Below, one piece after another: positions 1,621-20,966 of a DNA stretch of 64,000 nucleotides. The notes under the pieces are model-generated. The model was not told where the DNA came from. It saw nothing but the letters and a program-made list of their open reading frames with translations, and did not search any database. Location: positions 17,597-81,596 of the forward strand of contig CAYYSJ010000003.1 of the NCBI GenBank assembly GCA_964474445.1, in the 5' to 3' direction. Made by a program: the position numbers and the translations under genes. How positions within the stretch are numbered: the stretch's first letter is position 1; each line of letters begins with the position of its first letter. Source of the DNA: an uncultured Gammaproteobacteria bacterium. GTDB taxonomy: Bacteria; Patescibacteriota; Microgenomatia; Levybacterales; UBA12049.

Positions 1621-4026
1621 ATGGATGTAGTTGACAACGTCTGCAATTACATTACAATAGCTAAGGGCTTTTTTATGAGATCTCCTACATTATCAAAACG
1701 AATTAACTACATAGTAGACAGTAAACACTCATCTGCAAGTCGTATTATTCCATTCGCCACAGGTAACAGAAAAAAAGTTGAAGAACTAGAGGAGCTTGGA
1801 ATTCATGCAGAAGTTGCGCCACATATTAAACCACTAGAGGTTCAAGGTACTCCCGAAGAGGTCCTTCGAGCAAAAGCAAAAGATGCATATGAAAAGAATA
1901 ATGGTATTCCAACACTCGTTGAGGATACTTCCTTTAGTATTGATGATTTAGGTGGTTTTCCAGGAAGTTATGTAAAAGAAGTCTTGGGGACAAGAGAACA
2001 GCGAGAATTCTGGTGCAAAAAAATTAGTGATGAAAATAGGGGGGTAACATTTCGAGTGGGACTTGCAATCTTTGATGGACAAGAAGTGCAAGAGAGGTGG
2101 GGAGAAACTCGAGGATCGATTGCCGAGGCACCCCTTGGTCCTGCGAGCTTTGCGTTTGATGATATTTTTATTCCTGAAGGTGCAAAGAAAACATATGCAC
2201 AAATGACACTTCAGGAAAAAATGAAAACGTCTCCTCGAGCAAAAGCATACCATGCACTGGTCAAAAAACCGTTTTCTTTTGGGGGAGAAATCTGGCAATT
2301 GCAAGAGCCGATGGAGTTCATGCTGCGCAGGATAAATCTGTCAGAATTAGCCAAACATTCTGATGCGGTCAATTTTGCATATAGTTTGGATGTGTTACAA
2401 AAAGCAGGAGTAAAGCCACAAAAAACATTCGAAGTTGAAAAAATTGCACCCTATTATAAAAGGATCTATGCGCAGGGAGCAGTAATTGAATACACCCTTG
2501 ATCCCACGTCTTCTGGTATGGGACTGGTGTTGTTATCAGAAGTTGATTTAAAGACAATTCCTACAGAAGAGGGGAGAAAACCTCTTCGACTTGATGTAAA
2601 GATATTTGAAAACCCAGAAAATCCTGAGATGCCGTATGTTGAACCACTCCTTTTTCAAATGGGTCCAAAAGCAATGAAAGTTGCTCTTGCATCTCGTGCT
2701 GCAGAATTTATCGACATGCATTCTCCTGATATGCATCAGTATATTCGAGATTTACTTTCAGGACGTGTTCCTCATGTGGCCAGAACAAATACCAGATCGG
2801 AAGTGCTGGAAGACATTTTAGGAATGAAAGTACATACAGACGAGCACGGGACACATACTGTTATTGACTCTGCCTATGTTGCAATAGCAACAAAGGAGTT
2901 AGGGTATAAAAGAGAGTCTCACACTGATACATTAAGCCGCAAAACTGCAACAAAAGGGACTCTTCTGTTAGGTCCTGATGGCGTTGTTTCTGGCCTTTTT
3001 GCATATGGAGGAATGCCTCCTGTGACTGGTTCAGTTGATAGTGTGGTAACAGCGGCGATGTCCTACATGCGGGTATGGATTCCTCGAAATGGTGTTTTCG
3101 CTGGCAATTTTGAAAGACAACTTGGTCTTTTTAAAGAAGCAAAGAAAAAGATCGCATCATTCGGCTTGCCAAAAGATATTGAGGAGCAGGTTATCAAACA
3201 AATTGGCATTGCTGTTGGATGCGAGAATCCGGAACATATTGCTCAGGATGTCAAAAGATTCAAACGGGCAGGGGGACATGCTGTTCGTATTTATACAACT
3301 AATCCTGATATTCGTATTGTTGAGACAGCAGAAGCGATATACCAGGCAGTTGGTGACGATTTCCTCATTTGCGTTGGCCCAGTAACTGATGCAGCACAGG
3401 CAAAACTTCTGCATACACGAGGACATGTGAGGATGTTTTTGATTGGTCATGGTGGAGGAGAAAATTGTACCTCTCTTACTGCAGGAGGTGCAGCAAATTC
3501 GATAGAAATTTTATATGAAATGTACTTGGATAAACTGTTCAATGATAGTCTGATTGGTCTTGAAGGGGGGACGGGAACAACGATTGGAGCACTCCTTCCT
3601 ATGCTTGATGTGATATCCCTCAATAGACGTGGATCAGGAGGTATTGAATGTACAGGTGGCTTATATGCCAAGAAACATGTTCATGGACAGGAGGTTCCCG
3701 TTTTGCCTTATCATGGGAGTGCCAGTGCGGTGACACAACTTATTGAAAGTTATATGGATCCTGAGATTGCGAACAGGAGATTGGGACTTGATGGAATAGT
3801 CCGAGCAGTTGAAGGAAAGCCAAATTATATGGTGATGAGTGATCCTGCTCGAAGTAACGTCAACCGCATTCGAGAATCCCGATCCTATGCTGGACTTGCG
3901 TTAGCAGATCAGCAGGCAATGAGTGTCTATCAGCTTCGTAAGAAGGTTGCCCAACATGGACATAATCATGTTGGTATTTCTTCAGCATCAAGTGTGGTTG
4001 CTAACGAGCATAGAAGTGGTATCTGA
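1621..4026 (+). CDS. Fusion protein: N-terminal Ham1/RdgB-type non-canonical NTP pyrophosphatase (ITPase) domain plus C-terminal IMPDH/GMP-reductase-family TIM-barrel domain (801 aa)
   Basis: The N-terminal region carries the ITPase motifs FATGNRKK, VEDTSFSIDDLGGFPGSY, FAFDDIF and a SPRAKA segment matching the Ham1 SHRgrA region. The C-terminal region follows the IMPDH/GMPR catalytic-loop pattern: AVGCENPE..RAGGHAVRIYTTNPD..ICVGPV..MFLIGHGGGENCTSLTAGG..LIGLEGGTGT..GGLYAKKHVHGQ, with the Cys retained. The true start may be the ATG at 1675 (MRSPTL...). Confidence 0.6.
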   Translation: MDVVDNVCNYITIAKGFFMRSPTLSKRINYIVDSKHSSASRIIPFATGNRKKVEELEELGIHAEVAPHIKPLEVQGTPEEVLRAKAKDAYEKNNGIPTLVEDTSFSIDDLGGFPGSYVKEVLGTREQREFWCKKISDENRGVTFRVGLAIFDGQEVQERWGETRGSIAEAPLGPASFAFDDIFIPEGAKKTYAQMTLQEKMKTSPRAKAYHALVKKPFSFGGEIWQLQEPMEFMLRRINLSELAKHSDAVNFAYSLDVLQKAGVKPQKTFEVEKIAPYYKRIYAQGAVIEYTLDPTSSGMGLVLLSEVDLKTIPTEEGRKPLRLDVKIFENPENPEMPYVEPLLFQMGPKAMKVALASRAAEFIDMHSPDMHQYIRDLLSGRVPHVARTNTRSEVLEDILGMKVHTDEHGTHTVIDSAYVAIATKELGYKRESHTDTLSRKTATKGTLLLGPDGVVSGLFAYGGMPPVTGSVDSVVTAAMSYMRVWIPRNGVFAGNFERQLGLFKEAKKKIASFGLPKDIEEQVIKQIGIAVGCENPEHIAQDVKRFKRAGGHAVRIYTTNPDIRIVETAEAIYQAVGDDFLICVGPVTDAAQAKLLHTRGHVRMFLIGHGGGENCTSLTAGGAANSIEILYEMYLDKLFNDSLIGLEGGTGTTIGALLPMLDVISLNRRGSGGIECTGGLYAKKHVHGQEVPVLPYHGSASAVTQLIESYMDPEIANRRLGLDGIVRAVEGKPNYMVMSDPARSNVNRIRESRSYAGLALADQQAMSVYQLRKKVAQHGHNHVGISSASSVVANEHRSGI

Positions 4027-4097: not shown

Positions 4098-5438
4098 GTG
4101 ATTGTCATCATGATGAAACATCTTCAAAAAACCGATCCGCAAGTCTACAAACTCATCAAGGGAGAAGAAGAGCGCCAAAAAGATGTGTTAGAAATGATTC
4201 CTTCAGAAAATTATACATCCCAAGCTGTTATTGAGACATTAGGATCAGTTCTCACCAATAAATATTCAGAAGGATACCCTCGAAAACGATATTATCAGGG
4301 AAATGAAGTGATTGATAGTGTTGAAGAATTAGCACAAGAGCGAGCAAAAGAGCTTTTTGGTGTGCCCTATGTGAATGTCCAACCATATTCAGGAAGTCCA
4401 GCGAATGCGGCCATTTATATGGCTGTACTGCGTCCAGGACAAAAGTTAATGGGGCTTGCCCTTGATCATGGAGGACACATTACTCACGGACTTGAAGTGA
4501 TTGGGTTCTCCGGTACTTTTTATAAAACAGCTCATTATCATGTGAGTTCAAAAACACGACAACTGGATTATGATGAAGTGGAGAAAGAAGTCCTCAAAGA
4601 AAAGCCTGATCTCCTTATTTGTGGATTTACCGCATATCCTCGCATTATTAACTGGGCACGGTTTAGAGAAATTGCAGACAAAGCAGGGTGCTACCTTATG
4701 GCTGATATATCACATATCACAGGTTTGGTAATAGGAGGAGCCCATCCATCCCCAGTGCCTTTTGTTGATGTTGTGATGACAACAACTCATAAAACACTCC
4801 GCGGTCCACGAGGAGCAATGATTATGGTGACAGAAAGAGGTCTACAAAAAGATCCTGACTTACCAAAACGCATTAACACGGCTGTTTTCCCAGGATTACA
4901 AGGAGGGCCACATGACAACCAGACGGCAGCGATTGCTGTTGCACTCAAAGAAGCATCCTCAGCGAGTTTTAAAAAATATGCAGTACAAATTGTAAAGAAT
5001 GCAAAGAAATTAGCAGAAGAATTGGTAAAAGGTGGACTTGAACCAGTATCTGGTGGAACAGATAATCATTTGATTTTGGTAGATTTACAGAATAAACAGG
5101 TGAGTGGAAAAATTGCAGCAGAAGCACTTGAGGCAGCAGGGGTAGTCCTCAATTACAATTTAGTACCTTATGATCCAATGCCTCCTATGTATACATCAGG
5201 TATTCGTATGGGCACTCCTGCTATCACAACTCGAGGGCTTAAAGAGAGAGATATGGTAAAGGTTGCTGATTGGATAGTGAGGGCAATAAAAGAAGTTGAA
5301 GGATATTCACTTCCTGAGGATAAAGAAAAAAGACAAGAGTTAGTCAAAGAATATCGAGCAAAAATTGCAAAAAATAAAAATCTTCAAAAAATTGCCCAGG
5401 AAGTAAAATCATTCCTCAAAAAATTCCCAGTCCCATAA
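4098..5438 (+). CDS. glyA: Serine hydroxymethyltransferase
   Basis: Classic SHMT sequence throughout (DVLEMIPSENYTS, YSEGYPRKRYYQG, VQPYSGSPAN, HGGHITHG, TTTHKTLRGPRG). The start may be the ATG at 4110 or 4113. Confidence 0.95.
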   Translation: MIVIMMKHLQKTDPQVYKLIKGEEERQKDVLEMIPSENYTSQAVIETLGSVLTNKYSEGYPRKRYYQGNEVIDSVEELAQERAKELFGVPYVNVQPYSGSPANAAIYMAVLRPGQKLMGLALDHGGHITHGLEVIGFSGTFYKTAHYHVSSKTRQLDYDEVEKEVLKEKPDLLICGFTAYPRIINWARFREIADKAGCYLMADISHITGLVIGGAHPSPVPFVDVVMTTTHKTLRGPRGAMIMVTERGLQKDPDLPKRINTAVFPGLQGGPHDNQTAAIAVALKEASSASFKKYAVQIVKNAKKLAEELVKGGLEPVSGGTDNHLILVDLQNKQVSGKIAAEALEAAGVVLNYNLVPYDPMPPMYTSGIRMGTPAITTRGLKERDMVKVADWIVRAIKEVEGYSLPEDKEKRQELVKEYRAKIAKNKNLQKIAQEVKSFLKKFPVP

Positions 5439-10653: not shown

Positions 10654-11247
10654 CTACTGTATTATCACAAAATAATCTTCAGGAAGAGCAAAAGAGGTGA
10701 GATGCTCTTTATATATTTCTAATTCCTCTAGTTGTGGCTCATGTTCAAGAGTGTAGTGACAAAAGATTTTTATAGGAAGAATCCCTAAACCTTCTTCAAC
10801 TTGTTGTCTGTGATTTGAATAATAATACTTTGAGAGAACATTTGCTCCAGCAGACGTTCCGACTATTGTTTTATTAGTAAGATGTTCAGTGAGGACAGAA
10901 AGAGGAATAGTCTTGAGTAACTTTAAAATATTTTGCGTGTTCCCCCCTGCTAGAAAAATAATGTCTGCGGTATGGGTTTGATCTAAAAATTTTTCGGGGT
11001 TTTCATCTGCTAACAAAAAGGTTATTTGTTTGTTGGGGTATGCTTGAGAAAACTCTTCTTTTTTCTCTGCAAATGCTTTTTCCCACTGTTCTTTTTCTTT
11101 TGCAAATGGGACATACAAAAACATAAGTTTTTTTTCAGGTAAATCATGGATAATTTCTTCAAAGAAATCTTTTGTATAGTCTGAGCCAGGTTTACGGCCT
11201 CCATGAAGAATATATTTTGTTGACATGATCTCTATTATATCATTCAC
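10654..11247 (-). CDS. Peptidase S51 family (dipeptidase E-like / cyanophycinase-like)
   Basis: Carries the GTSAGA nucleophile-elbow motif typical of PepE/S51 and is ~200 aa. Confidence 0.55.
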   Translation of the reverse strand: MNDIIEIMSTKYILHGGRKPGSDYTKDFFEEIIHDLPEKKLMFLYVPFAKEKEQWEKAFAEKKEEFSQAYPNKQITFLLADENPEKFLDQTHTADIIFLAGGNTQNILKLLKTIPLSVLTEHLTNKTIVGTSAGANVLSKYYYSNHRQQVEEGLGILPIKIFCHYTLEHEPQLEELEIYKEHLTSFALPEDYFVIIQ

Positions 11248-11337
11248 CGAAAAAGTTATTCCACCAGACTATTTGATTTTCTGATATACTAATTTTCCTA
11301 ACACTCTGATAGTCTGAGGGTATTAGACAGCAACATT

Positions 11338-12036
11338 ATGCAAATTATCGTTGTCCAAAATCCAGAAAAAGGAACAGAAAAAGCAAAAGAAATTTTGTAT
11401 GAAAAAGTAGATAAACGTACCGTACTGTTTCTCTCAGGAGGAAATACTCCTCAACCGCTTTACCACCTATTGGCAAAAGAAAAAATAATTAAGCCAGTTG
11501 CGGTTGGTATGATTGATGAAAGATATGGAAAGCACATGCATGAGAGTAGTAATGAGAGAATGATACGAGAGGCAGGTTTTCTTGACTATTTAAAAAAACA
11601 TGCTATTCCTTTTTATCCAATGTTACGAGATGGTCTTAGTCTTGAGGAGACAGCAAGAGAATATGATCAGGTAACAAGAGATTTATTTTTTAAATTCCCG
11701 CGAAGTATCGCAGTGATGGGACTTGGAAAAGATGGACATACAGCAAGCATTATTCCAAATAGAAAAGGCTTTACCAATCCGATGTTTGAAGAAGGAAGAC
11801 AACATCAATTTGTCGGAGAATTGAATGATCAAAAAAGTGATTATAAAGAGCGAGTCGGGATGACGTTTGCAGGACTTGCCTTGATAGATTATTTTATTGT
11901 TCTTGCGTTTGGGAAAGAAAAGAAAAAAGCACTCAAAGAAATGTTTTCTGGTGGATATCCAGAAGAACTTCCTGCACGATTTTTCCCGCAAGAAGCTTCT
12001 GAGAAAACGGTAGTGATTACTGATCAAAAGATGTAG
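11338..12036 (+). CDS. pgl: 6-phosphogluconolactonase
   Basis: Carries the GLGKDGHTASIIP motif of the NagB/Pgl family and lies adjacent to zwf. Confidence 0.8.
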   Translation: MQIIVVQNPEKGTEKAKEILYEKVDKRTVLFLSGGNTPQPLYHLLAKEKIIKPVAVGMIDERYGKHMHESSNERMIREAGFLDYLKKHAIPFYPMLRDGLSLEETAREYDQVTRDLFFKFPRSIAVMGLGKDGHTASIIPNRKGFTNPMFEEGRQHQFVGELNDQKSDYKERVGMTFAGLALIDYFIVLAFGKEKKKALKEMFSGGYPEELPARFFPQEASEKTVVITDQKM

Positions 12037-12090
12037 GGAAGAAAAGTAATCTTTTGTACCTCCTCTTACGCTCTTTATCTCTCCCGGTTA

Positions 12091-13539
12091 GTGCACTATA
12101 ATATATCCATGAATTCTCCCTTTGTCCTTGTTCTCTTTGGTGCAACAGGAGACTTGGCAAAAAATAAACTACTTCCTGCATTATTTACCCTTTTTAAGAA
12201 GAAGGAATTACCAAAAGATTTTTGGATCGTAGGATTTGCAAGACGCCCTTTAACTGATGAAGATTTTGTTGCCTTTTTCCCTGAGGAATCTACTCATCCA
12301 GAGTGGAAAAATTTTGCACAACATCTTTCATACCAGCAAGGAAATTTTGATGAATTGTGGGGGTATGAAGCACTCGTTGAAAAACTCCAGAAACTAGATG
12401 AGCAAATGGGTGCTTGTATCACTCGAATTTTTTATTTAGCGACTCCTCCTCAAAATTACGATACTATTTTGGCTAATCTTGTTGGGACGAAATTATCAGA
12501 AGGATGTGGGCAGGGGAGTACCAAATGGACCCGTATTGCTATAGAAAAACCATTTGGTAAAGATTTGGATACTGCACGGGAGCTTGATCAAAAACTCTCA
12601 CACATTTTTGAAGAACGACAGATTTTCCGAGTAGACCATTATTTAGGAAAAGAAGCAGTGCAGAATTTACTTGTGTTTAGATTTGCAAATGGGATCTTTG
12701 ATCCCATTTGGAATCATGAATACATTGACCATGTACAAATTACTCTGTCTGAGAAAAAAGGAATTGGTGCAAGGGGAAAGTTTTTTGATGGGGTAGGGAC
12801 CTTGAGGGATGTTGGACAAAATCATTTAATGCAACTGGTAGCGGCCGTTGCTCAGGAAATGCCACAAAGTTTTTCTGAAGAGGGGGTAAGAAATGTACGG
12901 GCAAAGGCAATTGCGGCAATTGAATGCATAGAGGCACAACACGTAGGAGAACGAGTTGTGAGGGGACAATATGAAGGATATCTTTCGGAAAAAGACGTTG
13001 CACATGATTCTAAGACAGAAACATTTATTGCTATGAAATTTTTTGTGAATACTCCTCGTTTTGCTGGAGTTCCTTTCTATCTACGAGCAGGAAAAGAGAT
13101 GGCTGAGGATGTTGTGCAAATATCGATTGTCTTTAAACAGACATGTCATATTCTTTTTAAAGAAGTTGGATGTCCTGAAGAAGGTAATATATTAACAATT
13201 CGAATTCAGCCAGACGAAGGGATAACACTCAAGATGATTGCAAAGACACCAGGGTCTCTCCTTTCTTTGATACCTGTGGACATGCATTTTAAATATTCAG
13301 AACAATTTGGTTCGCAAGGGTCAGACGCCTATGAAAAAGTATTGGGAGATATTATTAAAGGCGATCAGATGTTATTTAATCGTTCTGATGAACTTGATTC
13401 TTCGTGGACATTTATTGAAAAAATTATGCAAGGATGGGAAAACGAATATACCCCTGTCTTTGAATATAAAAAAGGCAGTTGGGGGCCAAAGGCTGCAGAT
13501 GAATTACTAGAAAAAGACGGCAAAAAGTGGATAGAGTAA
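12091..13539 (+). CDS. zwf: Glucose-6-phosphate 1-dehydrogenase
   Basis: Carries GATGDLA and RVDHYLGKE motifs and matches G6PDH over its full length. Confidence 0.95.
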   Translation: MHYNISMNSPFVLVLFGATGDLAKNKLLPALFTLFKKKELPKDFWIVGFARRPLTDEDFVAFFPEESTHPEWKNFAQHLSYQQGNFDELWGYEALVEKLQKLDEQMGACITRIFYLATPPQNYDTILANLVGTKLSEGCGQGSTKWTRIAIEKPFGKDLDTARELDQKLSHIFEERQIFRVDHYLGKEAVQNLLVFRFANGIFDPIWNHEYIDHVQITLSEKKGIGARGKFFDGVGTLRDVGQNHLMQLVAAVAQEMPQSFSEEGVRNVRAKAIAAIECIEAQHVGERVVRGQYEGYLSEKDVAHDSKTETFIAMKFFVNTPRFAGVPFYLRAGKEMAEDVVQISIVFKQTCHILFKEVGCPEEGNILTIRIQPDEGITLKMIAKTPGSLLSLIPVDMHFKYSEQFGSQGSDAYEKVLGDIIKGDQMLFNRSDELDSSWTFIEKIMQGWENEYTPVFEYKKGSWGPKAADELLEKDGKKWIE

Positions 13540-13548
13540 TTTGTTCTA

Positions 13549-13713
13549 TTGACAACATCCACACAACCGACGTATAGTGAAAAAGAAATGGAGAGACAAA
13601 CCTATGAACAGTAGAGTAGACGTTTACAATAACTATTCACCATCAACAACTTCCTGATGTAGCTGGGAGTTTTGTTGTGTGATATGTACACCTCCCAGCA
13701 GGGAGGTTTTTTT
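13549..13713 (+). promoter_or_regulatory. Promoter (TTGACA-18-TATAGT), a 17-codon leader ORF (13604-13657, MNSRVDVYNNYSPSTTS) and mutually exclusive hairpins ending in an intrinsic terminator (CCUCCC-agca-GGGAGG-U7), upstream of serB
   Basis: All elements read directly. GCUGGGAG (13662-13669) can pair with CUCCCAGC (13692-13699), which competes with the terminator stem 13691-13706. The leader peptide ends in Ser/Thr codons 2 nt before the first stem. There is also a very short frame-shifted ORF, MERQTYEQ, at 13588-13614. Confidence 0.45.
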
Positions 13714-13747
13714 GTGGCACAGTATGCCACAAAGATAAAGGAAAACT

Positions 13748-14428
13748 ATGAATGATACAGTATTACAAATGAACAATATTACATTACTCATCGATTTTGA
13801 TAGTACATTTGTATCAGTTGAATCGCTCGATGTGTTGGCAGAAATTGTTTTGCAAAAAAGAAGTGATAAAGAGGAGGTTCTTTGTACCATTCAAGAAATT
13901 ACTGCTTTGGGTATGGAAGGAAAAATTTCTTTTCCTGAATCTTTATCAAAAAGAATGAAACTGTTTCGTCCAACACAAAACGATGTTGCGGAGTTGGTTA
14001 AGATATTACATGGACATATTACTCCCTCTGTGAAAAAGTACAAAGCGTTTTTCAAAAGACACAAAAACTCAGTATATATTCTTTCCAGCGGATTTCGTGA
14101 TTATATGATTCCCGTTGTCTCAGAGTTTGGAATTCCTGAGGATCATGTTTTTGGAAATCAATTCGTATTTGATACTCAAGGAGAATTCCTAGGATTTGAT
14201 GCACATAATGTGTTGGCAGGGGAAAAAGGAAAGGTAAAGAAAATCAAAGAACAAGAACTTCAAGGGCTTTTATACATGATAGGAGATGGGCATACTGATT
14301 GGGAAGTAAAAGAAGCAGGTCTTGTAGAGAAGTTTTTTGCGTTCACAGAGAATGTGACAAGAGAATCAGTTGTGAAAAAAGCAGATGTTATTGCTGCATC
14401 CTTTGAGGAGGTATTGAAGTATTTATGA
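13748..14428 (+). CDS. serB: Phosphoserine phosphatase (HAD superfamily)
   Basis: HAD motif I (LIDFDSTFV), a GDGHTD motif, and its stop overlaps the start of serC. Confidence 0.75.
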   Translation: MNDTVLQMNNITLLIDFDSTFVSVESLDVLAEIVLQKRSDKEEVLCTIQEITALGMEGKISFPESLSKRMKLFRPTQNDVAELVKILHGHITPSVKKYKAFFKRHKNSVYILSSGFRDYMIPVVSEFGIPEDHVFGNQFVFDTQGEFLGFDAHNVLAGEKGKVKKIKEQELQGLLYMIGDGHTDWEVKEAGLVEKFFAFTENVTRESVVKKADVIAASFEEVLKYL

Positions 14429-15513
14429 AACAAATATTTTTCACACCAGGACCATCACAGCTATACCCAACAGTTGGGAAGCATTTGCAAAAAGCAGTGG
14501 AGCAACAAATTTGTTCGTTGTCTCATCGGTCCGAGCAATTTGAAGAAGTTTTTTCATCAACAATAAAAGGACTCAGAACATTGTTGAACATACCAGAGAA
14601 CTATGCTGTTGTATTTGTTTCATCTGGTACAGAAGCAATGGAGCGAATTATTCAAAACACAGTGAAGAAAAAAAGTTTTCATTTTGTGAATGGATCTTTT
14701 TCAAAAAGGTGGTGTGGTTTTGCAAAAGAATTAGGAAAGGATGCAGAAAAAGAGGAAGTTGATTTTGGCAGAGGGTTTACTACTAATGTGAAAATTTCAG
14801 ACGAAACAGAACTTATTTGTTTCACGCAAAATGAGACAAGTAGCGGTGTTGCAATAAACCCAGCATTCATCTATGACGCTCAACAAAAGCACTCTGATGT
14901 GCTGATTGCTGTTGATATTGTCTCTTCAGCGCCTATTGTCTCTCTCGATTTTTCTAGGTTAGACTGCACCTTTTTCTCTGTGCAAAAAAATTTTGGGCTA
15001 CCTTCAGGTCTTGGTGCCCTTATTCTTTCACCAAGAGCAATTGAAAAAGCAAAGTATTTGCAAAAAGAGGGGTTAAGGATTGGTACCTATCACAATTTTC
15101 CAACTCTGGTTGAGTGGGCTCAAAAAAAACAAACACCTGAAACTCCCAATGTCTTAGCTATTTATCTATTGAATGAAGTTATAAAAGATTTTCTGAAAAA
15201 AGGAATAGAGAACATTCGAAAAGAGACAAAAGAAAAATCAGACATGGTCTATCAATTTCTTCAACAACACAAAACATACAAACCTTTTGTTGAAGAAGCA
15301 TTTCGATCACAAACAGTTATTGTTACAGATGTAGGGGACAGTTTGTTTCTTCAAATGAAGTTGCAGCAAAGGGGTCTTATTGTTGGAGATGGCTATGGAC
15401 CATATAAGGACAGGCAAATACGAATCGCAAACTTTCCGGCAGTGAGTATGGGAGATATGAAAAGATTGTTAGAAGCATTGGATACAATATCCAAGACACA
15501 TGTTAGAACGTAA
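14425..15513 (+). CDS. serC: Phosphoserine aminotransferase
   Basis: FFTPGP N-terminus and a class-V aminotransferase pattern. It sits in an operon with serB. Confidence 0.8.
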   Translation: MKQIFFTPGPSQLYPTVGKHLQKAVEQQICSLSHRSEQFEEVFSSTIKGLRTLLNIPENYAVVFVSSGTEAMERIIQNTVKKKSFHFVNGSFSKRWCGFAKELGKDAEKEEVDFGRGFTTNVKISDETELICFTQNETSSGVAINPAFIYDAQQKHSDVLIAVDIVSSAPIVSLDFSRLDCTFFSVQKNFGLPSGLGALILSPRAIEKAKYLQKEGLRIGTYHNFPTLVEWAQKKQTPETPNVLAIYLLNEVIKDFLKKGIENIRKETKEKSDMVYQFLQQHKTYKPFVEEAFRSQTVIVTDVGDSLFLQMKLQQRGLIVGDGYGPYKDRQIRIANFPAVSMGDMKRLLEALDTISKTHVRT

Positions 15514-16918
15514 AAATTATATGAATACATACATTATTAATCAATTGAAAAGTATTGTTGGCATTAAATATATTTCTGTTGAGGAGGAACAGAGAAAAGC
15601 TCATTCTAAAGATAAGTCGTATTATCAAGCTGTTCTACCAGATATTGTTGTCTGGCCGAAAAATACGCAGGAAGTAAGTAGGATAGTTCGTTTAGCACAT
15701 GAACATACTATTCCAGTAACTGCATGGGGTGGAGGAACATCTTTGATGGGTAATAGCATTCCTGTTAAAAAGGGCATTGTTATGAATCTTACTCGAATGA
15801 ATAACATTCTTGATGTCAGTAAGGATGGATTTCAGGTAACGGTTGAACCAGGAATTATCTGTGACGAGTTAAATGCGCAGCTAAAAGTACACAAATTATT
15901 TTTTCCTCCATTTCCAGGAAGTTCTCACATTGCAACAATTGGTGGGATGATAGCAACAAATGCAGGGGGTATGTATGCCGTAAAATACGGTGTGACAGCG
16001 GATTGGGTCATGCAACTTGAGGTAGTATTGGCAAATGGAGATATTGTGACAGTAGGGAGCAAATCAATAAAGTCAGTTGCAGGATATAATCTCCTTCGTC
16101 TTTTTATTGGCTCCTCAGGAACGCTGGGGATTGTGACAAAAGCAGTCCTGAAGGTATGTCCGTTACCTGAGTTTGAAATGGCAGCTGTTGTTGCTTTTCA
16201 ACATTTATCAGATTTGAGTAGTGCAATCGGTGCAGTGTTATCATCGCATATCAAACCAGCAGCACTTGAGTTAATGGATATGAGTTATGTAAAGCTTGCA
16301 AATTTGGCTCAAACAAAAATTCAATTAGCAGAGATGGAAACACTCTTGATAGAACTGCACGGACCAAAAGTTGAATTACAACGTCAACTCCTGCAACTTG
16401 AAAGTATTTGTCGTCAATATCATGCGATCACCTATGATACTTATACAACTCCTGCAGAGGTTGACGGTTTATGGGGATGTCGTAAGGGGGTTCGTCTTGC
16501 TTTTCAAAAACTATCTCCTGAGAAAGCAATCCTTTCTGCAGAAGTGGGTGTGCCACTTCAGTATGTACCTCACTTTATTAAGAATGCCAGAGATCTACAA
16601 ATGAAATATGATACACAAATGCTCAACCATGGACATGTGGGAGATGGAAATTTTCATACGTGGGTTGTCTATGACATGGACGATACGGTTTCTTATAAAA
16701 AAGCACATAAGATTCATGAGGAGTTAATTCGATTTGCGATAGGAGTTGGTGGAACTGCAACGGGTGAACATGGGCTTGGTATTGGAAAAAAAGACTATTT
16801 GCCACTAGAGCATCCAACATCTTTTATGCTAATGGAACAAGTAAAACAACTTTTTGATCCAAAGGGGATTCTGAATCCAGGAAAAATTTTCCCAGATGAA
16901 GCAATTGCAAAGACATAA
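15500..16918 (+). CDS. FAD-linked oxidase, GlcD/D-lactate/D-2-hydroxyglutarate dehydrogenase family
   Basis: PCMH-type FAD-binding domain (VVWPKNTQEVSRIVRLAHEHTIPVTAWGGGTS) and a C-terminal FAD-oxidase domain. Its start overlaps the serC stop. Confidence 0.75.
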   Translation: MLERKNYMNTYIINQLKSIVGIKYISVEEEQRKAHSKDKSYYQAVLPDIVVWPKNTQEVSRIVRLAHEHTIPVTAWGGGTSLMGNSIPVKKGIVMNLTRMNNILDVSKDGFQVTVEPGIICDELNAQLKVHKLFFPPFPGSSHIATIGGMIATNAGGMYAVKYGVTADWVMQLEVVLANGDIVTVGSKSIKSVAGYNLLRLFIGSSGTLGIVTKAVLKVCPLPEFEMAAVVAFQHLSDLSSAIGAVLSSHIKPAALELMDMSYVKLANLAQTKIQLAEMETLLIELHGPKVELQRQLLQLESICRQYHAITYDTYTTPAEVDGLWGCRKGVRLAFQKLSPEKAILSAEVGVPLQYVPHFIKNARDLQMKYDTQMLNHGHVGDGNFHTWVVYDMDDTVSYKKAHKIHEELIRFAIGVGGTATGEHGLGIGKKDYLPLEHPTSFMLMEQVKQLFDPKGILNPGKIFPDEAIAKT

Positions 16919-16939
16919 AAAATACGATACGATCCTGAT

Positions 16940-17362
16940 ATGAAAATCATGATAAGTGGCAGTATGGCATTTGCAAAGGAAATGTTTGCTGCAAAAGAAG
17001 TCCTTGAAAAAATGGGACATGAAGTGCAAATACCGCATACAATTGAGTTGAATATTGATGATGAAAAATTAACTGACGATTTGGACCAGAATTTTTTAAA
17101 CTGTATTGAAAATGACACGATGAGAAAATGTTTTCAGCAAGTCGCCGATTGTGATGCTGTGGTTGTGTTAAATTATCCAAAGAATAATATCAATGGTTAC
17201 ATTGGCACATCAACACTCATGGAAATGGGTATTGGTTATTTTATGCATAAAGAATTGTTTACTCTTTTTCCTTACCCAAGCGATAAAGAGGTGAGGTGGG
17301 CACACGAAGTACGTATTATGCAGCCTCACGTTCTTCACGGAGATTTATCAAAAGTTTCTTAG
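16940..17362 (+). CDS. Nucleoside 2-deoxyribosyltransferase-like protein (PF05014-type, possibly a 2'-deoxynucleoside 5'-phosphate N-hydrolase)
   Basis: MISGSM N-terminus, a CDAVVVLNY segment and GTSTLMEMGIGY, which are typical of this family. Confidence 0.55.
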   Translation: MKIMISGSMAFAKEMFAAKEVLEKMGHEVQIPHTIELNIDDEKLTDDLDQNFLNCIENDTMRKCFQQVADCDAVVVLNYPKNNINGYIGTSTLMEMGIGYFMHKELFTLFPYPSDKEVRWAHEVRIMQPHVLHGDLSKVS

Positions 17363-17422
17363 TGGTTGTCCTGTAAATAATGGTTATTGTAATTCTCGTT
17401 TAAATCTTGTAGTATTCCCTCC

Positions 17423-17974
17423 ATGTTCCAACATGAAACCCAAAAAGAGCCAGGTCATGCTATCGAGGGTTTAGAAACAACTCCTGTACAGATCAGAGCA
17501 GCACGACTGGAAGACGTAAAAGATGTCGCACGGCTTGCGCAAAAACTTGAAGAAGAATTGCGTAAAGGAGAAGCGAGGAGAAAATATACTACAAAAGAGC
17601 TGGAAAGAATTTATACAGAGAGGATTATAACACCTACAGAACCTGAGCTTGATAAAAAATTTGGCGTGTTTGTTGCAGAAGATCAAGAAAAAATTGTTGG
17701 ATTTGTTATGGGGAAAATAGAAATGAGAGACATTCCTCGAAAATTTAGCTTACTGCAAGGCATCTATGTTATTTCAGATTATAGGAGAACGGACGTTGCA
17801 GAGAATTTAGTTCATGAATTTGTTAGGTTTTCGCAAACTCATGGTATTTCTGAAATTCATGCTGAAGTAATTAGAGAAAGTGCAGGTGAACGTTTCTTTT
17901 CTTCTCGCTTGCATTGGACAGAACAACAGTCTGCAGATTTTCCTCCTCATAGACGGAGACTTGTTCGGTTCTAG
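17423..17974 (+). CDS. GNAT family N-acetyltransferase
   Basis: About 180 aa with a central GFVMG...Y segment and a GNAT-like layout. Weak recognition. Confidence 0.45.
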   Translation: MFQHETQKEPGHAIEGLETTPVQIRAARLEDVKDVARLAQKLEEELRKGEARRKYTTKELERIYTERIITPTEPELDKKFGVFVAEDQEKIVGFVMGKIEMRDIPRKFSLLQGIYVISDYRRTDVAENLVHEFVRFSQTHGISEIHAEVIRESAGERFFSSRLHWTEQQSADFPPHRRRLVRF

Positions 17975-18032
17975 TTCTCCTTAATTTTTTTGCTCTTGCA
18001 TTCTTTATCCAAAAACTGTACTTTCTATAGAT

Positions 18033-18983
18033 ATGAGAATTGGATTTTTGGGTCTTGGAAAAATGGGGAAGAGAATGGTTTGGAAGCTTCTTACTCAAAA
18101 ATATGATGTTGTTGTCTGGAACAGATCTTCTACCCCAATTGAAGAGTTAGTTGAGGAATACGAGGGGGCATCTTCTGTACAACGTAAAAAAATGGGACAA
18201 CTTTTTGTTGCATCAGATATTGCTGAGATGAAGACTCTTCTTCGCAAAACCCGTGTCTTTTGGTCAATGCTTCCTGCAGGTGATGCAACAGATGGTATTT
18301 TAGAACAGATTGCCGATATTGCAGAAGAAGGAGATATTGTTGTTGATGGAGGGAATAGTTATTTTAAAGATTCTCAAAAATGGTTTGATAGATTTAAAAA
18401 ATTGAATGTGAGATTTCTAGGAATTGGTGTTAGTGGAGGAGTTTTGGCAGCAGAAAATGGTTTTTCCCTTATGGTTGGTGGAGATGAAAGTGCTTTTGTC
18501 CATATTAAACCAGTTCTTAAAACATTTGCTTCTCCAAGTGGATCATTTGACTATTTTGGTACTGGCGGAGTAGGTCATTTTATTAAAATGGTTCACAATG
18601 GAATAGAATATGGCATGATGCAATCAATTGGTGAAGGATTTGGGGTGTTGGAGAAAGGACCATATAAACTTGATTTATCAAAAGTGGCAAAGGTATGGCA
18701 AAAAGGAACGATTATTTCATCGTTCCTTATTGATAGGGCATCAGATGCCTTGAAGAAAGATCATAATTTAGAAAATATTATTGGGGAAATTGATGCAACA
18801 GGAGAAGCAGCATGGACAATTGAGGCTGCAGAAAAAGAAGGTGTTCCAGTTCAGATAATTAAAGACTCACTGCATTTTAGACAAAAATCAAAGAGTGATA
18901 AGAAAGTTCAAAAATCATTTGCTGCAAAAATGGTCGCAGCTCTTCGCCATGAATTTGGTGGACATAAGGTAAAAGAAAAATAG
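18033..18983 (+). CDS. gnd: 6-phosphogluconate dehydrogenase, decarboxylating, short (YqeC/Gnd-like) form
   Basis: GFLGLGKMG Rossmann motif, VVDGGNSYF, and MVHNGIEYGMMQSIGEGF, which is the 6PGDH signature. Confidence 0.85.
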   Translation: MRIGFLGLGKMGKRMVWKLLTQKYDVVVWNRSSTPIEELVEEYEGASSVQRKKMGQLFVASDIAEMKTLLRKTRVFWSMLPAGDATDGILEQIADIAEEGDIVVDGGNSYFKDSQKWFDRFKKLNVRFLGIGVSGGVLAAENGFSLMVGGDESAFVHIKPVLKTFASPSGSFDYFGTGGVGHFIKMVHNGIEYGMMQSIGEGFGVLEKGPYKLDLSKVAKVWQKGTIISSFLIDRASDALKKDHNLENIIGEIDATGEAAWTIEAAEKEGVPVQIIKDSLHFRQKSKSDKKVQKSFAAKMVAALRHEFGGHKVKEK

Positions 18984-18999
18984 ATTAACGGAGGTTAAG

Positions 19000-19028
19000 T
19001 TGACAAGATAGAAGGTCACTGCTATACT
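19000..19028 (+). promoter_or_regulatory. Promoter TTGACA-17-TATACT driving the proS leader
   Basis: Hexamers and 17-nt spacing read directly. Confidence 0.5.
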
Positions 19029-19029
19029 T

Positions 19030-19213
19030 TCTTCAAAAGCGATGAAGGGGAATTCCCGCCCCTGAGCTGACTACGATGAGTAGATCCGGTAACTCCCGTT
19101 ATAGAGAAAATAAGCTTAGATTTGGTTTTTAATCTAAGGAAAACAAGGTGGTACCACGAGCATCCTCGTCCTTGTTAAGGTCTGACAGACCTTGGCAGAG
19201 ATGAGGTTTTTTT
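19030..19213 (+). ncRNA. T-box riboswitch leader upstream of proS, with a candidate proline specifier codon
   Basis: The conserved T-box sequence AAACAAGGTGGTACCACGAG (19141-19160) matches the AANNNGGGUGGUACCGCG consensus. An intrinsic terminator follows: CCTCGTC...AAGGTC-tgaca-GACCTT...GATGAGG plus T7 (19164-19213). The upstream stem region contains GAAUUCCCGCCCC, which carries CCC/CCG Pro codons. The ATG of proS lies 25 nt after the T-run. Confidence 0.75.
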
Positions 19214-19238
19214 ATGGAAAAACCTGTATACTAACACT

Positions 19239-20966
19239 ATGAAATATTCACAGTTACCATTTAGAACAAGTAAAGCAGTAGCAAAGGATTTACAGTCAAA
19301 AAATGCACGTCTTTTGATTCAAGCTGGTTATATCCATCAGGAAATGGCAGGAGTATATACCTTTTTGCCTCTTGGTCTTCGTGTTTTAGAAAAAATAGAA
19401 CAAATTATTCGGGAGGAGATGGATAAAATTGCCGTTGAAATCTTTATGACTTCTCTTGTTCCTCAAGAAATTTGGGTGAAATCTGGAAGACTCCATACAG
19501 TTGATGTCCTTATGAAAACGACTCCTGCAAATGAAAAAGCTCGAGCAAAACATGCTACAGAATATATCTTGGCTCCAACACATGAAGATACGGTGACAAA
19601 CTTAATTATGGAGCAGGTGAGATCGTATAAAGACTTGCCAACTGCGGTGTATCAAATCCAAACAAAATTCAGAAATGAGCCACGAGCAAAGTCAGGACTT
19701 CTCAGAGGTCGTGAATTTAGAATGAAAGATCTATATTCATTTCATACATCAGAAGAAGACTTAAAAAAATATTACGAAGTAGCAAAAGAGGCATACTGGA
19801 AAGTGTTTGAAAGGCTTGGTCTCAAACATGCAACGCTTCTTACTCTTGCATCAGGTGGAGATTTTACAAAAGAATACTCACATGAATTTCAAGTTATCTG
19901 TGACGCTGGAGAAGATCTTATTTTCCATGTTAAGAGTAAAAACCTTACTTTTAATCGCGAAGTTGCTCCTTCTCAAGCACCATCTCTCAATCAAAGTAAT
20001 GAAGAAGTGAAACCTTTAGAAGAAATAGAAGGGGCGGGTATTATTGGTGTTGGGGAAGTGGCAAAGCATGCAGGTATTCACATAGAGCAGACGACGAAAA
20101 CTATGCTTTTTGAGAATGAAAAAGCAGAGGTGATTGCTGCTGCTGTACGTGGAGGGTATGACATTAATGAAGAAAAGCTCAAAAAAATTTCAGGATCAGA
20201 ATCGCTCCAATTAGCATCTGCAGACGTAGTGAAGAAGGTAACTGGAGCTGAAATTGGATATGCAGGACTGTTGAATTTATCAAAAGATGTTAGAGTCTTT
20301 ATGGACGAGTCGATGAAAGGCAGAAAAAACTTTGAAATGGGTGCAAATAGGACAAATTATCATTCCATCAATGTTAATTTTGGTCGTGATCTGGAGGAAC
20401 CAGGGGAATTTTACGATATTAAAGTAGCAAAAGAAGGGGATTTGTATCCAGAAACAGGAGAAGTCTATGAGGTGTACAAAGCAGCCGAAGTTGGGAACAT
20501 CTTCCCATTAAATACAAAATTCTCAAAAGCATTTGATTTTTATTACACAGACGAAAAGGGTGAGAAACACCTCGTCTACATGGGAAGTTATGGAATAGGT
20601 CCATCACGTGTTATGGGAGTAATTGTTGAGAAGTTTGCTGATGAAAAAGGGCTTGTGTGGCCACGACATATTGCACCATTTACTGTCCATCTCATTTCTA
20701 TTCGGAAAAATGTAGAAGCTGATTTTCTGTATAAAGCACTTCAGAAAGAAGGGATTGAGGTCTTTTTAGATGATAGGGAAACAGTTTCAGTTGGAGAAAA
20801 ATTTGCAGATGCAGATCTTCTGGGAATGCCTGTGAGAATAGTTATTTCTGAAAAAACTGGTGATAAGGTGGAGTGGAAAGAACGAACACAAGAGAACCCA
20901 GAGCTTATTTCTATACAAGAGGCAGTGGAAAGACTCCTAAAGGCAAAAGAAGAAAAGAATTACTGA
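19239..20966 (+). CDS. proS: Prolyl-tRNA synthetase
   Basis: Class II aaRS motifs and the ProRS N-terminus (FRTSKAVAKDLQ..ARLLIQAGYI), with a C-terminal anticodon-binding domain. Confidence 0.9.
   Translation: MKYSQLPFRTSKAVAKDLQSKNARLLIQAGYIHQEMAGVYTFLPLGLRVLEKIEQIIREEMDKIAVEIFMTSLVPQEIWVKSGRLHTVDVLMKTTPANEKARAKHATEYILAPTHEDTVTNLIMEQVRSYKDLPTAVYQIQTKFRNEPRAKSGLLRGREFRMKDLYSFHTSEEDLKKYYEVAKEAYWKVFERLGLKHATLLTLASGGDFTKEYSHEFQVICDAGEDLIFHVKSKNLTFNREVAPSQAPSLNQSNEEVKPLEEIEGAGIIGVGEVAKHAGIHIEQTTKTMLFENEKAEVIAAAVRGGYDINEEKLKKISGSESLQLASADVVKKVTGAEIGYAGLLNLSKDVRVFMDESMKGRKNFEMGANRTNYHSINVNFGRDLEEPGEFYDIKVAKEGDLYPETGEVYEVYKAAEVGNIFPLNTKFSKAFDFYYTDEKGEKHLVYMGSYGIGPSRVMGVIVEKFADEKGLVWPRHIAPFTVHLISIRKNVEADFLYKALQKEGIEVFLDDRETVSVGEKFADADLLGMPVRIVISEKTGDKVEWKERTQENPELISIQEAVERLLKAKEEKNY

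Follow-up and report, generated by a model that had tools for sequence, protein, structure and literature searches.

A conserved translated leader with alternative terminator and antiterminator helices precedes a serB-like operon of Patescibacteria: a candidate serine attenuator

The region upstream of the serB-like gene

The subject of this work is the region 13549-13747 within a 64,000-nucleotide stretch of contig CAYYSJ010000003.1 (GenBank assembly GCA_964474445.1, positions 17,597 to 81,596), which is referred to as the window in the following. The region begins just behind the stop codon of zwf (13537-13539) and ends at a gene for a SerB-like phosphatase, which is followed by genes for a SerC-like aminotransferase and a flavin adenine dinucleotide (FAD)-linked oxidase (Table 1). 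Homologues of the phosphatase, a HAD-type protein, frequently occur as fusions with SerA or carry the name phosphoserine phosphatase or phosphoglycerate dehydrogenase, and these fusions and names make it reasonable to read the operon as one of the serine pathway. An earlier note on this DNA had proposed that the region is a leader-peptide attenuator controlling the three genes. The promoter, the Shine-Dalgarno sequence, the 17-codon open reading frame (ORF) and the 4-nt gap behind it that were named there are all present; the coordinates of the ORF and of both 8-mers lie one base below those from a naive count.

The promoter matches the consensus at 11 of 12 positions and shares first place among the promoter-like sites when positions 11000-19500 are scanned for the consensus; transcription of the leader is predicted to start near 13585. 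In the scan of the same interval the terminator, with a computed energy of -12.6 kcal/mol, is the top terminator-like site. Four nucleotides, TGTA, lie between the TGA codon of the leader and the 8-mer GCTGGGAG (13662-13669), and the octamer CTCCCAGC (13692-13699), which overlaps the 5' arm of the terminator, is the exact complement of GCTGGGAG; that the two can pair had been noted before. The antiterminator formed by these segments (2:3) has a computed energy of -17.7 kcal/mol. Two features had been overlooked. One is a hairpin between segments 1 and 2, modelled as an anti-antiterminator of -14.8 kcal/mol. The other is a conserved peptide of 13 residues: residues 1-13 of the window leader represent the module MNxRV[DN]xxNN[YF]SP of a leader family, members of which also precede glycine and folate genes. 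Codons 12 and 14-17 of the window leader (S, S, T, T, S) are proposed to be the regulatory codons. A perfect 6-bp hairpin, GTGGCA-CAGTA-TGCCAC, directly follows the T run of the terminator at 13714-13730, ahead of the Shine-Dalgarno sequence for the serB-like gene; the related locus L003 lacks it.

Table 1. Features of the candidate attenuator and of the genes following it (window coordinates)
Feature	Position	Strand	Remarks
Sigma-70-type promoter	13549-13578	+	TTGACA 13549-13554, 18-nt spacer, TATAGT 13573-13578; read from the sequence
Shine-Dalgarno sequence GGAGAG	13590-13595	+	8 nt ahead of the leader ATG
Leader ORF, 17 codons, MNSRVDVYNNYSPSTTS	13604-13657	+	ATG 13604, TGA 13655-13657
Segment 1, UUCACCAUCAACAACUUCC, codons 11-17	13636-13654	+	pairs with segment 2 and its 3' flank
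Segment 2	13662-13682	+	GCUGGGAG (13662-13669), 5' arm of the antiterminator; flank to 13682 pairs with segment 1
Segment 3, CUCCCAGC	13692-13699	+	terminator 5' arm plus three loop bases; forms the antiterminator with segment 2
Intrinsic terminator, ACCUCCC-AGCA-GGGAGGU + U7	13690-13713	+	stem-loop 13690-13707, T run 13707-13713
HAD-IB SerB-like phosphatase	13748-14428	+	best NCBIfam matches are SerB models, below cut-off
Class-V SerC-like aminotransferase	14425-15513	+	best matches are SerC models, below cut-off
GlcD-like FAD-linked oxidase	15500-16918	+	

Distribution of the leader family

Genome loci encoding relatives of the HAD/SerB protein were collected with one genome per species, which resulted in 80 loci. 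The leader ORF was found in 12 of these loci, all of which had been chosen by SerB homology alone, and in each of four further close relatives (L185-L188) that had been fetched by SerB identity only. The carriers among the 80 loci are labelled Roizmanbacteria, Patescibacteria or 'uncultured Gammaproteobacteria', and none of the 12 is labelled Bacteroidota or another named phylum. Metagenome contigs were scanned for the constant part of the leader by means of a degenerate DNA pattern, ATGAAYNNNMGNGTNNANNNNNNNAAYAAYTWYTCNCC. A total of 102 metagenome stretches match this pattern; by our own estimate from its information content, only a few would be expected by chance. Genome loci and metagenome contigs combined gave 93 unique instances with at least 120 nt of sequence, on which the family statistics are based. 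The leaders form a large family that has apparently been described nowhere so far.

Examples of leader peptides are those of L003 (MNSRVDIYNNFSPSTTS), L004 (MNTRVNVHNNFSPTSSLI), L005 (MNKRVQVTNNFSPSSASFS) and L027 (MNDRVDFTNNYSPSSSSSPLNGRLKYND). In the closest relatives the same small ORF is followed by an antiterminator and a terminator of differing sequence. The conservation in related genomes that the earlier note had suggested examining is therefore found for the leader ORF as well as for both alternative helices, and the arm of the antiterminator changes along with the terminator. The gene upstream of the leader is not constant. In the loci L185-L188 its place is taken by zwf, by an unrelated ORF or, in L186, by a divergent SerA gene, and in L004 zwf is not directly upstream, the preceding ORF ending about 250 nt before the leader ATG. 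This variation indicates that the element belongs to the ser genes and not to zwf.

The prolyl-tRNA synthetase (ProRS) encoded in the window is nearest to proteins named Patescibacteria, Microgenomates or Roizmanbacteria. Six of the related loci (L003, L005, L007, L018, L030 and L081) are titled 'uncultured Gammaproteobacteria', and their genes are nearest to proteins of Patescibacteria/Microgenomates; the taxonomic labels of these related records of metagenome-assembled genomes (MAGs) look unreliable.

Conservation and translation of the leader peptide

Over the 93 instances the leader has the consensus M-N-x-R-V-[D/N]-[V/I/F]-x-N-N-[Y/F]-S-P, which is followed by a variable tail. Conservation exhibits a three-base periodicity with an entropy of 1.1-1.8 bits at third codon positions, and codon 7, on which the search pattern placed no constraint, has T at position 2 in 88 of the 93 instances. 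For codon 4 the pattern permitted AGN or CGN. Here, AGA was observed 39 times and AGG once, with no instance of AGC or AGT, and the CGN family is represented by CGA (32), CGG (3) and CGC/CGT (18). The distribution of 40 AGA/AGG versus 0 AGY and of 35 CGR versus 18 CGY codons (Fisher p = 9.5e-6) means that arginine is kept and not the nucleotides. Judged by this coding-type conservation, the leader ORF is translated.

S12 is invariant across the family, this residue being fixed in the search pattern, and leaders with other residues at positions 12 or 13 were not encountered in 1.34 Mb of loci, which as a collection favour the motif. Peptides of the family with lengths of 27-34 residues yielded no Pfam or NCBIfam match, and none to TnaC or SpeFL. 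The nascent chain MNxRV[DN]xxNN[YF]SP probably slows or sensitizes the ribosome at Ser-Pro. The invariant codons 2, 6, 9, 10 and 11, and also codon 14 in members that lack a terminator, are nearly all of the type NAY, specifying Asn, Asp, Tyr and His.

A sigma-70 promoter with at least 9 of 12 matches is located directly upstream of the leader ATG in 68 of 92 members. The distance between the -10 box and the ATG is bimodal, amounting to 6-10 nt in 42 members and to 19-29 nt in about 20. The shorter distance implies leaderless or nearly leaderless transcripts. The window leader belongs to the group with the longer distance (25 nt) and has a Shine-Dalgarno sequence; GGAGAT is found at the equivalent position in L003. 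In three loci a gene for tRNA-Pro(CGG) is situated directly upstream of the leader ORF (L155, 8888-8960; L094, 1778-1850 on the minus strand; L159, 2585-2659), and in L159 the leader ATG follows only 2 nt after it. Processing of the tRNA 3' end could create a leaderless mRNA in such cases.

Terminator and antiterminator in the family

An intrinsic terminator is present in 59 of the 93 unique members, that of the window included, and starts 84-118 nt from the ATG. In 57 of these 59 members an upstream segment complements the 5' arm of the terminator beyond what is seen in shuffled sequences (median z -4.2, mean -18.1 kcal/mol). The paired segments 2/3 are GCUGGGAG/CUCCCAGC in the window, UCGGGGUU/AACCCCGA in L003 and GGGAGGUGG/CCAUCUCCC in L005. 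We used a MAFFT alignment of 27 diverse members, termed A2, for the analysis of covariation. In A2, 91% of the cells of the antiterminator helix are paired compared with 83 +/- 1% in shuffles, none of 500 of which reached the observed value, and when the partner was slid as a control 32-59% of cells were paired. Six of the eight antiterminator pairs have changes on both sides, i.e. compensatory changes. The three outermost pairs use bases of the terminator loop, and these bases covary with segment 2, for which only the antiterminator helix provides a reason. Hence, the antiterminator helix excludes the terminator and has the support of covariation, as required for an attenuator. On these comparative grounds the two alternative structures are real, and the mutually exclusive helices postulated in the earlier note hold for the family as for the window.

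Segment 2 starts at a distance of 50-66 nt from the ATG (median 59) in all 59 terminator-bearing members. The pyrimidine-rich segment 1 pairs with segment 2 with a family mean of -13.8 kcal/mol, reaching p <= 0.05 against shuffles in 39% of the members. Mononucleotide shuffles are a weak control for this helix, as a pyrimidine-rich composition alone already yields pairing. A comparison of matched with mismatched partners was therefore added and resulted in a permutation p of 2e-4.

In L005 (about 3771-3918), L018 (about 3820-4000) and L007 (about 3826-3982) a spacer of approximately 150-190 nt separates the terminator from a gene for a SerB-SerA fusion protein. The spacers of L005 and L018 share the sequence ATGCAGMTCTTGCCAAACTG...GCATAATC, and that of L005 contains a second hairpin; a comparison with Rfam yielded nothing at gathering score. 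These spacers may be a second regulatory element.

Position of the ribosome and choice of the helix

The stop codon of the leader lies 1-8 nt before segment 2 in 22 of the 59 terminator-bearing members, among them the window, and 9-30 nt past the start of segment 2 in the other 37; in none of the 59 is it more than 8 nt upstream of segment 2. We folded the leader of the window with its 5' part masked so as to imitate coverage by a ribosome. With no ribosome, the predicted structure comprises the 1:2 hairpin and the terminator (-30.3 kcal/mol). With the A site on S12, S14 or T16 the antiterminator formed and the terminator was absent (-23.2 kcal/mol for S12, -17.7 kcal/mol for S14 and T16), and with the A site on the stop codon only the terminator was left (-12.6 kcal/mol). 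The masked folds of the window therefore contain the antiterminator as long as the A site is on codons 12-16 and the terminator when the ribosome has reached the stop codon.

As a proxy for the choice made during transcription, all 59 members were folded as transcripts cut before the 3' arm of the terminator. The 5' arm of the terminator was sequestered in 57-58 of the 59 with the A site on codon 12, 14 or 16, and in only 3 when the ribosome had arrived at the stop codon. The geometry of the leader fits ribosome-mediated attenuation, and the proposal of the earlier note to this effect agrees with the placement of the stop codon in 59 of 59 members and with the masked folding of the window.

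Members without a terminator

The remaining 34 of the 93 members have no terminator. Their leaders, exemplified by L084, L094, L100, L106 and L116, carry short tails (SPH.., SPQ.., SPF..) and no antiterminator. The spacer to the next gene (median 46 nt) is poor in G (11%) and rich in U (T 42%). This gene mostly encodes a Vut_1 transporter, and a Shine-Dalgarno-like sequence precedes it in 4 of 32 cases. Termination by Rho or re-initiation are guesses as to how these members might act. This coupling of one module to two sorts of output argues most strongly for a contribution of the nascent chain itself to pausing. Further members without a terminator are found in L120, L155, L171 and L172, the element being located about 40-150 nt past each leader ATG.

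Genes behind the leader and the signal

The first gene after the leader encodes SerB and/or SerA, often as a fusion, in 38 cases and a transporter of the Vut_1 family in 23. A MTHFR fusion protein follows in four cases, a FolC-like ligase in three, and SHMT and a glycine transporter with one unique leader in two loci each; other first genes specify a His_Phos_1 phosphatase, a ThyA-like pterin-binding protein and an NlpC/P60 protein. In leader operons SerB/SerA is followed by SerC and in some cases by SerS, and DHFR-like (RibD_C) and F420-ligase-like genes are often found downstream of Vut_1. Going by the predicted products, the targets of the leader constitute a serine, glycine and one-carbon gene set, and every one of them can be read as making or sparing serine.

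In terminator-bearing leaders of Ser operons, serine occupies positions 14, 15, 16 and 17 in 76%, 61%, 39% and 58% of cases, respectively, and its frequency has dropped to 0 by position 20. These positions are relevant, since a ribosome paused there would free segment 2. Residues 14-20 contain on average 2.64 serines in the leaders of Ser operons versus 1.57 in the other terminator-bearing leaders (p = 4.5e-4), which are under the same constraint of RNA pairing. Moreover, AGY codons, which are of no use to the pyrimidine-rich helix, account for 19 of the 97 serine codons in the tails, so that the enrichment in serine is not just a consequence of pyrimidine-rich RNA. The window leader has its cognate codons S12, S14 and S17, together with T15 and T16, within the stall window, a modest run compared to that of hisL. 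The earlier note had described the C-terminal part of the leader as rich in Ser and Thr; with regard to the family this is correct for serine, which is enriched at positions 12 and 14-17 before Ser operons, and does not apply to threonine, the codons for which are not conserved. Serine or seryl-tRNA is thus suggested as the sensed signal.

Downstream of the leader-controlled SHMT gene, both L108 (4854-4942) and L169 (3884-3972, minus strand) have a tRNA-Ser gene (anticodon printed 'act'), and three tRNA-Ser genes (GGA, CGA and UGA) are located upstream of the leader in L102 (6213-9303, minus strand). These neighbours may be another connection with serine or mere coincidence.

Proposed mechanism

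Given the evidence on translation, helices and geometry, we are highly confident that the region consists of a translated leader and a terminator/antiterminator attenuator for the ser operon and that it is a member of a conserved family. The more specific reading, a ribosome-mediated attenuator at 13549-13747 that controls the serB-like, serC-like and FAD-oxidase genes in response to serine by way of seryl-tRNA, is the one we favour as probable, with some reserve. Transcription would start at the element's own promoter and the 17-codon leader would be translated. A ribosome reaching the stop codon would cover segment 2 (GCUGGGAG), the terminator (3:4) would form and transcription would end at the U7 run. 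A ribosome lingering while one of codons 12-16 (S-P-S-T-T) is in its A site would instead cover segment 1 and leave segment 2 free to pair with the 5' arm and the loop of the terminator, such that RNA polymerase would enter the operon. The likeliest cause of lingering would be a shortage of charged tRNA-Ser. In this scheme, the nature of the signal, the role of the N-terminal module and the behaviour of the leader when it is not translated are what we infer.

Several points weigh against this scheme. The window leader holds only four Ser and two Thr codons, and conservation of residues 1-11 at the peptide level is superfluous for a plain hungry-codon device. The 34 members lacking a terminator have almost no serine past S12, and a one-carbon or folate signal would fit the targets nearly as well as serine. 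With respect to folding, the 2:3 helix is more stable at equilibrium than the 1:2 helix (-17.7 versus -14.8 kcal/mol in the window), and the 5' arm of the terminator was sequestered in 36 of the 59 cut transcripts even without a ribosome; the default state of the untranslated leader consequently depends on folding kinetics and is uncertain. The minimum free energy structures of full-length transcripts follow the complete three-state logic in just 27 of 59 members, because stable terminators win at equilibrium. Finally, most members were found with a pattern that fixes the constant residues, so that invariance is partly by construction, and the family statistics are given without correction for phylogeny.

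Alternative explanations

The peptide itself could be the sensor. It is conceivable, though doubtful, that the constant module is a widespread ribosome arrest or sensor peptide of Patescibacteria that reports serine or one-carbon status. Sensing would then possibly occur via the nascent chain, the formyl group of a peptide initiated on a leaderless transcript or the state of a tRNA, and the output would possibly be either the intrinsic terminator/antiterminator or, by Rho or re-initiation, the G-poor spacer of members without a terminator. As applied to the window, this would mean that the 13-residue module responds to a small molecule or cell state, candidates being free serine or glycine, folate or one-carbon species and the formylation state of the initiator, that the stalled ribosome selects the antiterminator and that the serines of the tail are secondary or serve fine-tuning. 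We consider this rather unlikely. It would account for the selection on the chain N2-P13 at the amino-acid level, for the joining of the module to a terminator in 59 members and to a terminator-less G-poor spacer in 34, for the fixed distance of about 20 nt between P13 and segment 2, which is expected if stalling takes place at S12/P13, for the absence of variants at positions 12/13 in the motif-biased loci and for targets that are broader than serine (Vut_1, DHFR-like, FolC-like, F420-ligase-like, MTHFR and ThyA-like proteins). However, it is impossible to put a name to the ligand, the peptide resembles neither TnaC nor SpeFL nor any NCBIfam or Pfam family, and a pure arrest peptide does not predict the enrichment of serine codons, AGY included, in the stall window of Ser operons. 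NAY codons for Asn, Asp, Tyr and His are read by queuosine-modified tRNAs, and the Vut_1/YhhQ family includes queuosine-precursor transporters. The leader might accordingly sense the state of a tRNA other than tRNA-Ser, either queuosine modification through codons N2, D/N6, N9, N10, Y11 and H14 or tRNA-Pro, and the NAY character of the invariant codons, the rank of Vut_1/YhhQ-family transporters as second commonest target and the tRNA-Pro(CGG) genes directly upstream of three leaders would be in line with this. Such a role is nevertheless very unlikely: position 11 is Phe, which is not specified by NAY, in 36 of the 93 members, the majority of targets belong to the serine, glycine and folate genes and are unconnected with queuosine, the DHFR-like and F420-ligase-like genes in Vut_1 operons point to folate salvage, and the tRNA-Pro genes next to the leader may come from one lineage only.

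Two further explanations do without a translated sensor and were both rejected. The position of the element just after zwf would agree with a hairpin that merely terminates zwf transcription, with the small ORF and the complementary 8-mer arising by chance, and the region as a whole holds no more promoter-like sites than shuffles do. Taken alone, the fold of the region is also unexceptional (z = -1.45), and the case beyond chance rests on comparison, i.e. on the recurrence of ORF, antiterminator and terminator with compensatory changes in distant genomes. It is this comparison that contradicts the explanation and renders it extremely improbable: the element precedes serB-serC with a gene other than zwf upstream in L004, L186, L188 and the Roizmanbacteria loci, its helices covary, and 102 pattern matches stand against the few expected. 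The earlier note had named a hairpin that simply serves zwf as an outcome that would speak against its proposal; the element travels with serB-serC and not with zwf. Conserved sequence beside a terminator/antiterminator is also seen in riboswitches, and the conserved 39 nt might be an untranslated RNA aptamer or an RNA- or protein-binding site. This is highly improbable in view of the three-base period, the free third positions, the synonymous switches between Arg codon families, the ATG start right after a promoter or Shine-Dalgarno sequence, the lack of internal covarying stems in the constant region and the lack of an Rfam match.

Relation to known systems

Leader-peptide attenuation is a textbook mechanism. 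By its mode of action the element described here would be a classical three-helix attenuator of the trp/his type. It resembles the enterobacterial trpL, hisL, thrL, pheL, leuL and ilvL leaders in having a short promoter-proximal ORF with the regulatory codons in segment 1, in the overlap of the 1:2, 2:3 and 3:4 helices, in the intrinsic terminator ahead of the first gene and in a stop codon placed such that a terminating ribosome masks segment 2. It differs from them in that serine is the amino acid proposed, the run of regulatory codons is short and many copies are seemingly leaderless. In addition, residues 1-13 form a peptide that has been conserved between very distant genomes, unlike the classical leaders, and that also precedes glycine and folate genes. 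When the region was compared with Rfam at permissive E-values, the best hit was Phe_leader with 19.9 bits against a gathering score of 55 (E = 2.1), and at gathering score no relevant match was obtained in the whole window or in 15 related loci. The element is therefore not a member of the curated Phe, His, Thr, Trp or Leu leader families, for which scores remained below threshold.

TnaC (tryptophan) and SpeFL (ornithine) are likewise short leaders with a conserved amino-acid sequence, on which the stalled ribosome decides about transcription, and the layout of the terminator-less subclass with its G-poor spacer is reminiscent of their dependence on Rho. In contrast to them, the leaders studied here have no sequence similarity to either peptide, the copy in the window uses an intrinsic terminator/antiterminator, the logic is biosynthetic, i.e. 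on at short supply, and stalling is presumed. In the ErmCL, ErmBL, Cat and Cml leaders the peptide sequence programmes a stall, and the stall remodels the downstream RNA. With these the family shares a nascent chain that, at 8-13 residues, lies wholly within the upper exit tunnel. They sense antibiotics and mostly regulate translation of resistance genes, whereas the targets here are metabolic and transcription termination is affected.

In the full-text literature searched only two systems turned up, the Ser T-box, which controls serA of Paenibacillus (PMC8002221), and the serC RNA motif of alpha-proteobacteria (PMC1273637). The targets of the leader family overlap with those of the Ser T-box, the serC motif and the glycine, THF and ZTP riboswitches (serA/serC, serS, glyA, folate transport and metabolism). 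Yet those are sensors made of RNA only; here, the conserved part is a translated peptide and the constant region is devoid of internal helices. No description of the peptide motif or of leader-peptide attenuation in Patescibacteria, also known as the Candidate Phyla Radiation (CPR), was found in full-text searches, which also took in arrest peptides, serA/serC attenuation, and riboswitches and leaderless transcripts of the CPR, nor a serine leader-peptide attenuator, which accords with the remark of the earlier note that none is established. Gene regulation in this group is, to our knowledge, almost uncharacterised.

The 93 unique copies with their strong covariation and fixed geometry represent a comparative data set, and the deep conservation of a nascent chain of 13 residues is unusual for attenuators. 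The coherent set of serine, glycine and folate genes would show which metabolic shortage these genome-reduced bacteria monitor. The motif could help to annotate operons and small ORFs in MAGs of Patescibacteria, and the switch could serve as a compact serine-responsive part. If the module should prove to be an arrest peptide, serine, glycine and folate genes would be controlled by a peptide sensor in organisms of which hardly any regulation has been characterised.

Further observations on the neighbouring genes

Beyond the three genes of Table 1, the transcription unit may extend via DUF4406 and GNAT genes and a gnd-like gene to position 18983; within the scanned interval (11000-19500) and by the criteria of the scan, no convincing terminator-like site was detected on the plus strand before 19346. 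In the segment 11338-18983 the ser-like, DUF4406 and GNAT genes interrupt an oxidative pentose-phosphate cluster, with pgl-zwf on one side and the short gnd-like gene, which is of the 6-phosphogluconate dehydrogenase type, on the other. The operon in the window does not contain a SerA gene, the position of which is taken by the gene for the GlcD-like FAD oxidase. If SerA is encoded at another place, this oxidase might recycle D-2-hydroxyglutarate for it; alternatively, it might replace SerA.

The SHMT gene of the window (4098-5438) starts only 71 nt past the preceding ORF and lacks a leader of this family; leader-controlled SHMT genes occur in L108 and L169. On the minus strand of the window, 54180-56204 encodes a haem-copper oxidase subunit I, an unusual find in Patescibacteria.

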